6,579 nucleotides of DNA from a virus (Duplodnaviria > Heunggongvirae > Uroviricota > Caudoviricetes). The stretch is taken from IMG/VR virus record IMGVR_UViG_2778261641_000015, positions 1-6,579 of that record; one strand, given 5' to 3'. The notes under the pieces are model-generated. The model was not told where the DNA came from and made no database searches. It saw only the letters and a list, made by a program, of their open reading frames with translations. Positions 1 through 1,047 of this stretch are shown piece by piece (position 1 is the first letter of the stretch; every line of letters starts with the position of its first letter). Made by a program: the position numbers and the translations under genes.

Positions 1-324
1 ATGGATGCACAAACACGCCGCCGCGAACGTCGCGCAGAGAAACAGGCTCAATGGAAAGCAGCAAATCCCCTGTTGGTTGGGGTAAGCGCAAAACCAGTTA
101 ACCGCCCTATTCTCTCGCTGAATCGCAAACCGAAATCACGAGTAGAAAGCGCACTGAATCCGATAGACCTTACGGTGCTGGCTGAATACCACGAACAGAT
201 TGAAAGCAACCTGCAACGTATTGAGCGCAAGAATCAGCGCACATGGTACAGCAAGCCTGGCGAACGCGGCATAACATGCAGAGGACGCCAGAAAATTAAA
301 GGTAAATCTATATCACTTATTTAG
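1..324 (+). CDS. N: Antitermination protein N (lambda-like, 107 aa)
   Basis: Complete ORF starting at window position 1. Translation [25 protein letters not shown]... matches lambda N as I remember it, including the Arg-rich N-terminal RNA-binding motif; only a few C-terminal substitutions (ends KGKSISLI). TAG stop at 322-324. Confidence 0.93.
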
Positions 325-811
325 AAAATGCAGATTTAGGGAACAGATAGGAGGCGTTACACCTATGGCATCTCATCCTATGGTTAGAAGGTGGTGCAAA
401 TCCTTCGTATTGAAGTATGGATTTCACAGAAGATTCATAGCATTGAGCGCAAAGATAGTGCATTGGCTGACCGGTATTTGCCGATTTTTTGAGACGATAA
501 ACCACCGTAGCAACAGTAGGTGTATACATCTCATAGTTTTTCTTTTCCTCTTCCCACTTAGAGGCTCGATTTATCTTTTCTTCAAGCTCAATAATCTTGT
601 CCTTAGAAATCATCAAAAGCTCATTAAGTGACATTTGCTGCTGTTGGGCATCCATGAGCTTATCGACAAGTTCGTATGTTTTTTCTTTTACTGAGTAGTC
701 TATTTGCATTTTCTGGATTTCCTTTACTGCGCCAACAGCACTCATCAGAGCACCTCCGGCACCAGAAACTGCATCTGTAATCCTACTTATTATTCCTTTT
801 TCATCAGACAT
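317..811 (-). CDS. Hypothetical protein, 164 aa from the ATG at 811 (ORF track extends to a GTG at 820): Gly/Ala-rich N-terminal segment, charged coiled-coil-like middle, C-terminal CxxC-x23-CxxC zinc-ribbon-like motif; not recognised as any named family
   Basis: Long minus-strand ORF with protein-like composition ([29 protein letters not shown]..., [20 protein letters not shown], ...CAQC...CHRC...). The two plus-strand ORFs covering the same DNA translate to low-complexity junk. ATG at 811 is preceded by AAGAGAG about 9 nt upstream. Region is AT-rich relative to flanks. TAA stop at 317-319 overlaps the last codons of N. Confidence 0.65.
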
Positions 812-827
812 ATAAATCACTCTCTTA

Positions 828-872
828 CTGTAGGGGTAAGAGGATTTTACTATTTTTCTCGCTGTAGGGGTA
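828..872. repeat. Direct repeat CTGTAGGGGTA at 828-838 and 862-872, 34 bp apart; possible operator pair in the 5' region of the minus-strand gene
   Basis: Exact 11-bp match read directly from the sequence, lying 17-61 bp upstream (minus-strand sense) of the ATG at 811. The first copy is embedded in the palindrome CTCTTAC(822-828)/GTAAGAG(836-842). A TAAAAT -10-like hexamer (minus strand, 849-844) lies between the copies. Confidence 0.5.
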
Positions 873-1021
873 CACGAGAACCACCGAGCCTGATGTGGTT
901 AAAAGACAGGCATACTAATAAACACTGCACTGTGTATTTATTCCAACGAGTGAATACACGGAGCAATGTCGCTCGTAACTAAACAGGAGCCGACTTGTTC
1001 TGATTATTGGAAATCTTCTTT

Positions 1022-1047
1022 GCCCTCCAGTGTGAGGGCGATTTTTT
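1022..1047 (+). terminator. Intrinsic terminator-like hairpin (GCCCTC-cagtgt-GAGGGC) followed by a T-run, upstream of ea10
   Basis: 6-bp GC-rich perfect stem at 1022-1027/1034-1039, then GATTTTTTAT (T-run 1042-1047). Oriented to act on rightward (pL-type) transcription in this window. Confidence 0.6.

Follow-up and report, generated by a model that had tools for sequence, protein, structure and literature searches.

The sieB-position gene of Escherichia phage ev099 is very probably rip1, a single-protein abortive-infection defence, and lies behind a conserved twin-box leader

The one long minus-strand open reading frame (ORF) between N and ea10 of Escherichia phage ev099, at positions 317-811, is with very little doubt rip1, a prophage-encoded single-protein abortive-infection defence. 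The window analysed here is a 6,579-nucleotide stretch of viral DNA (IMG/VR record IMGVR_UViG_2778261641_000015, positions 1 to 6,579), which is 100% identical to the ev099 genome (NC_049953 / LR597635). Its plus strand carries the leftward early (pL) operon, with N, ea10, cIII, kil, gam, bet and exo, followed by genes toward xis and int. The gene and its immediate surroundings comprise:

1..324, plus strand: antiterminator gene N, the left flank, in the pL operon (DNA 96.6% identical to lambda N; annotated as N)
317..811, minus strand: the coding sequence assigned to rip1, 164 aa (ORF list; HK446 gp37 match, 163/164; PGAP WP_001278766; phrog_1244)
820..826, minus strand: Shine-Dalgarno-like AAGAGAG, 8 nt 5′ of the rip1 ATG (read from the sequence)
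827..912, minus strand: sieB-type 5′ leader, recognised by alignment with lambda, HK629 and Serratia prophages; presumed promoter
1020..1051, plus strand: intrinsic terminator of the pL operon directly before ea10, in the flank and outside the cassette (terminator scan: 8-pair stem, then a T-run)
1068-1436, plus strand: ea10

When the ORF product was compared by BLASTP with gp37 of phage HK446 (YP_007111990), 163 of the 164 residues were identical, the sole difference being Y96 in ev099 against H96 in HK446 Rip1. A phmmer search of the PDB retrieved entry 9OOX, ring interacting pore 1 (Rip1), at E=1.4e-105, with residues 3-164 aligned and all of them the same except Y96/H96. A profile of the family run against PDB sequences matched the same entry, with its 12 Rip1 chains of 164 residues, at E=3e-53. 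The entry, released on 2026-02-04, is entitled 'Cryo-EM structure of the Escherichia phage HK446 Rip1 in complex with the Enterobacteria phage T6 small terminase'. Foldseek aligned an AF2 model of the ev099 protein with 9oox_M at E=1.7e-17 (TM 0.85 normalised to the target, rmsd 2.7 Å over 126 columns); all matches beyond 9oox_M and 9oox_L had E>0.7. At the DNA level HK446 is 99.4% identical to window positions 1-1047, with N and rip1 arranged alike. In PHROGs the protein falls into phrog_1244 (E=4e-53), a family of unassigned function. Scans of the 164-aa protein against Pfam and NCBIfam returned nothing significant, and in PADLOC-DB 2.0.0 (2023), a library older than Rip1, the best match, PDC-M53B, was not significant (E=0.019).

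A first-pass annotation made from the letters of the sequence had proposed a lysogen-expressed, single-gene exclusion or anti-phage defence function for this cassette at the sieB/ral position. The proposal is supported by the identity with HK446 Rip1, by 9OOX and by the published mechanism. Its view of the protein as an unrecognised, new family did not survive, Rip1 having been named and its structure solved in 2026. The gene is thus already known, because it is near-identical to a characterised and structurally solved defence protein, and since published work explains it, little about it remains to be discovered.

Rip1 was described by Patel et al. (Nature 651:1060, 2026), whose work is summarised in section 5 of the review PMC13434031. 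According to that section, the founding Rip1 comes from a P. aeruginosa prophage, where it lies between the terminase genes; the protein is not toxic by itself, and infected cells that contain it round up. [quoted passage not shown] Cryo-EM revealed 12 Rip1 monomers encircling an 11-mer small-terminase ring, which is contacted by the C-terminal half of Rip1, the N-terminal part being an amphipathic helix. Such complexes cause dye to leak from liposomes and perforate E. coli, and homologues are said there to be widespread in Proteobacteria, mainly in prophages (PMC13434031). The passages on Rip1 in a meeting report (PMC12908700) and in a 2026 Nature Communications paper (PMC13601566) agree with this account.

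Applied to ev099, this scheme would have rip1 transcribed in the lysogen from the sieB-type promoter. The trigger would be a ring-shaped protein made by the superinfecting phage, small terminase for the E. coli protein (as with T6) or portal in the case of Pseudomonas phages. Twelve Rip1 monomers would gather around this ring through their C-terminal halves; their N-terminal helices would then open a pore in the membrane, permeabilising or lysing the cell before progeny mature. After induction, N-antiterminated transcription from pL, running antisense through rip1, would dampen rip1, and ev099's own lambda-type terminase and portal presumably do not trigger the protein.

The ev099 protein has the parts that such a scheme calls upon:

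710..793, minus strand: Gly/Ala-rich N-terminal amphipathic helix, codons 7-34 (AF2 helix 7-34; putative pore-lining role taken from the review)
542..697, minus strand: long central helix, coiled-coil-like stalk, codons 39-90 (AF2 helix 39-90)
320..535, minus strand: beta-rich C-terminal domain, codons 93-164, with four invariant Cys (AF2; putative terminase-ring contact taken from the review)
449-451, 440-442, 368-370 and 359-361, minus strand: codons C121, C124, C148 and C151, respectively

The AF2 model has a mean pLDDT of 69 (moderate confidence), rising to about 80 in the C-terminal domain, which is both the best-predicted and the best-conserved region of the protein. Here CAQC occupies residues 121-124 and CHRC residues 148-151, exactly 23 residues apart. 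The four Cys are invariant in alignments of 20 and of 100 diverse homologues, and in the larger alignment no other column is invariant. A CxxC-x23-CxxC arrangement of this kind probably binds zinc. Hydrophobicity along the protein peaks in helix 7-34, with a Kyte-Doolittle 19-residue maximum (1.28 at residue 11) below the transmembrane threshold and a hydrophobic moment of up to 0.42, a moderate value. The ev099 protein therefore combines an amphipathic N-terminal helix, without a constitutive transmembrane segment, with a C-terminal domain containing a conserved CxxC...CxxC. The Gly/Ala-rich N-terminus, heptad-like middle and CAQC-x23-CHRC end described in the first pass were borne out by the motif positions and the AF2 architecture.

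The one amino-acid difference at residue 96, together with a simple sigma-70 consensus promoter scan of the leader that gave no good match (its only match, 816-789, lies inside rip1), leaves a very small chance that the ev099 orthologue is silent, or that its trigger range differs from that of HK446 Rip1 owing to H96Y or to the phage background. Residue 96, however, lies just before the C-terminal domain in a column with free variation among family members (Y, H, C, F, I), and the leader and ribosome-binding site fall within the HK446 match (1-1047, 99.4% overall) and are conserved to Serratia. Among 5426 complete E. coli genomes, moreover, 93 contain the full cassette with the same allele intact, and 2243 have the lambda-type flank. 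An abortive-infection Rip1 like that of HK446 remains our preferred reading of the ORF.

BLASTN against lambda resolved the locus into three blocks. Window positions 1-324 correspond to N, 827-912 to the 86 bp directly upstream of the sieB start codon (87% identity), and 917-1500 to DNA downstream of ral (99% identity); HK629 is 96.7% identical to the window over 809-1049. Judged by these alignments, rip1, with a ribosome-binding site of its own, stands in place of the coding sequence and ribosome-binding site of sieB, and the sieB leader is kept. The first-pass picture of one minus-strand ORF at 317-811, in an N-ea10 interval of about 740 bp against roughly 1.1 kb in lambda, is confirmed: the ORF encodes 164 aa, and the interval measures 743 bp, compared with 1132 bp in lambda, where it contains sieB, orf28 and ral. 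At the junction (913-916), orf28 and ral are deleted relative to lambda, besides sieB, so ev099 is without the Ral restriction-alleviation gene. The terminator at 1020..1051, which we take to be tL2a of the lambda map, falls within the third block.

SieB is reportedly an abortive-infection function expressed in lysogens. The slot, the orientation and the twin-box leader of rip1 are shared with sieB of lambda and P22 (PF14163), and could also point to a divergent SieB-type membrane exclusion protein. The probability of such a relationship is close to nil: the family profile, compared with lambda SieB by hhalign, gave 0.1%, the ev099 protein had no PF14163 match where true SieB positive controls scored E=1e-13 to 1e-29, and SieB has N-terminal membrane segments by hydropathy, whereas Rip1 has none and the ev099 protein contains no hydrophobic segment of transmembrane grade. 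SieB homology of ORF 317-811 was rejected on these grounds.

The rip1 gene starts with ATG at 811-809 and stops at 319-317 on the minus strand; it is convergent with N, overlapping the N 3′-end by 8 nt, and antisense to the pL operon. A start at the in-frame GTG at 820 would lengthen the product by 3 aa; the ATG is the start used by both PGAP and the PDB construct. The AAGAGAG upstream of it is also kept in HK629 and in Serratia prophages. PGAP labels the product a hypothetical protein (WP_001278766), and the RefSeq record of ev099 (NC_049953) omits rip1 and annotates only a plus-strand 88-aa ORF, gp46, at 365-631. That gp46 is the real gene and the minus-strand ORF spurious deserves practically no credence, being already refuted by the solved structure of the minus-strand product (9OOX), by thousands of homologues of that product with invariant Cys, and by PGAP annotation of E. 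coli chromosomes and the HK446 record, both of which call the minus-strand gene. The ev099 RefSeq record thus has the wrong strand at the rip1 locus and needs correction.

Within the gene, at 743-757 (minus strand), a perfect GGAGG stands 7 nt before an in-frame ATG, rip1 codon 23, and promoter-like hexamers occur at 816-789. Speculatively, these elements could give an N-terminally truncated Rip1, as Esc is made from sieB. At least 90% of the close homologues have Lys in the codon-23 column, and the internal ATG is not conserved.

The leader retained from sieB has an internal structure of its own:

862-870 and 828-836, minus strand: two CCCCTACAG boxes in the leader, 25 nt apart, with an invariant TAAAnT between them

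The leaders of ev099, lambda, HK629 and two Serratia prophages share an invariant core consisting of GTACCCCTACAGCGAGAAA, TAAAnT and ACCCCTACAGT. The window has 2 copies of the 9-mer CCCCTACAG where chance would give 0.04, and the 9-mer occurs twice, at equal spacing, at every related locus examined. We scanned IMG/VR for the twin-box pattern and translated the ORF after each match, which gave at least 113 downstream ORFs. Among the 113 ORFs from the matches listed, 80 belonged to SieB (one cluster, assigned by confirming PF14163 on representatives) and 26 to the Rip1 family; the remaining seven were singletons or likely chance matches. The twin-box slot, among the matches listed, appears to be essentially a two-family exclusion-gene slot with a common leader, which answers the first-pass question of whether the interval is a variable cargo slot: it holds SieB or Rip1.

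From E. coli to Serratia the twin-box element stays the same even as the surrounding DNA diverges, and such invariance would imply a regulator or an RNA switch. We put forward only tentatively, and as rather unlikely, the reading that Rip1 and SieB are interchangeable alleles whose invariant leader implies a regulator or switch of this kind, like the sas/esc arrangement of P22 sieB. A hairpin at 821-843 that would mask the Shine-Dalgarno sequence was considered as a means of regulation and dropped; it folds no better than shuffled sequence (z=-0.75).

An exhaustive profile search for the Rip1 family yielded 2962 cluster representatives, nearly all of 150-180 aa. In phage genomes, tblastn found near-identical copies in HK446 and vB_EcoP-720R6, homologues of 27-32% identity in HK620 (hkaP), HK629 and HK630, and further homologues in many Mu-like Pseudomonas phages, including D3112 (orf25), DMS3, JBD30 and MP38. 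Membership of D3112 orf25 and HK629 gp43 in the Rip1 family was supported by hhalign (100%, E=7.5e-41, and 99.7%, respectively). A homologue with 45% identity is present in Serratia prophages, where it lies in the same N/cIII slot and on the opposite strand. In ev099, HK446, HK629, D3112, the Serratia prophages and one metagenomic prophage, the Rip1-family gene stands alone, lies in a prophage and is antisense to the adjoining operon.

HK446 Rip1 shares with the ev099 protein its length, its position convergent with N, its leader and its fold. The two phages differ elsewhere: ev099 (Radostvirus) has a lambda-type recombination and structural module, whereas that of HK446 is HK97-like, and the downstream neighbour is ea10 in ev099 but an anti-restriction gene in HK446. 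HkaP of HK620 and gp43 of HK629 and HK630 are likewise 164 aa long and encoded in the sieB slot, antisense to the pL operon in HK629, yet they share only about 23-27% protein identity with ev099 Rip1 (26.9% by tblastn, 23% by hhalign) and so represent a second, deeply diverged rip1 allele behind the same leader. We found no experimental test of HkaP or gp43. The Pseudomonas homologues, such as D3112 orf25, have 30-32% identity, the same build and an antisense position in the surrounding operon, but occupy a late-operon slot, compared with the pL operon for ev099; PMC13434031 puts the founding Rip1 in that late-operon slot. The trigger of Pseudomonas Rip1 is given in the Rip1 section of PMC13434031 as the portal and not the small terminase.

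Phage JBD26 of Pseudomonas provides a functional neighbour of these homologues in Tab, whose gene is a minus-strand prophage moron that has a promoter to itself (PMC10884400). [quoted passage not shown] Compared by description, Tab differs from Rip1 in its 83 residues, its anti-Tab partner gene and its lack of a pore (PMC10884400).

Base composition says less about the origin of the cassette than had been thought. The hand counts of GC in the first-pass annotation, 22/60 at 541-600 and 33/60 at 2521-2580, were exact, and GC is 39.6% in the rip1 ORF, 46.7% in the whole window and 51.6% in gam-bet-exo. The drop had been read as a sign of horizontally acquired cargo, an argument weaker than claimed: the flanking native lambda gene ea10 is equally AT-rich (39.3% GC), and this makes the drop weak evidence for foreign origin, and 8% of all 495-nt windows have a GC content as low as or lower than that of the rip1 ORF. 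The proposed cassette swap is better supported by the exact homology breakpoints with lambda and HK629 than by GC.

Other parts of ev099 also depart from lambda or resemble cargo. The cIII gene (1509-1649, plus strand) encodes 46 aa, compared with 54 aa in lambda, with a shortened C-terminus and an overlap with the kil start. Between an ea22-like gene and xis, positions 5228-5953 (plus strand) encode a protein of 241 aa whose N-terminus resembles a signal peptide and which is assigned by annotation to the lysozyme inhibitor LprI family. This may be another cargo gene; it is followed at 5954-6190 by the most AT-rich part of the window (about 33% GC). Outside the window, beside the repressor gene, ev099 has an NYN-domain gene at the lambda rexA/rexB position (L001 1662-2519), making this position a candidate for another lysogen-expressed defence slot. 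In E. coli strain 104 the ev099-type NYN-domain gene is either split or a pseudogene.

From raw sequence alone, a defence gene was spotted that annotation pipelines label hypothetical or miss; Rip1 is absent from Pfam, NCBIfam and the 2023 PADLOC library despite some 3000 clusters at 50% identity. In lambdoid prophages, among the matches listed, SieB and its main alternative, Rip1, follow a common leader, which gives a simple sequence handle by which to look for more exclusion genes in the sieB slot. If the leader does act as a switch, it would set the expression of the exclusion gene in the lysogen, and after induction it might make the prophage immune to the abortive-infection gene that it carries itself.
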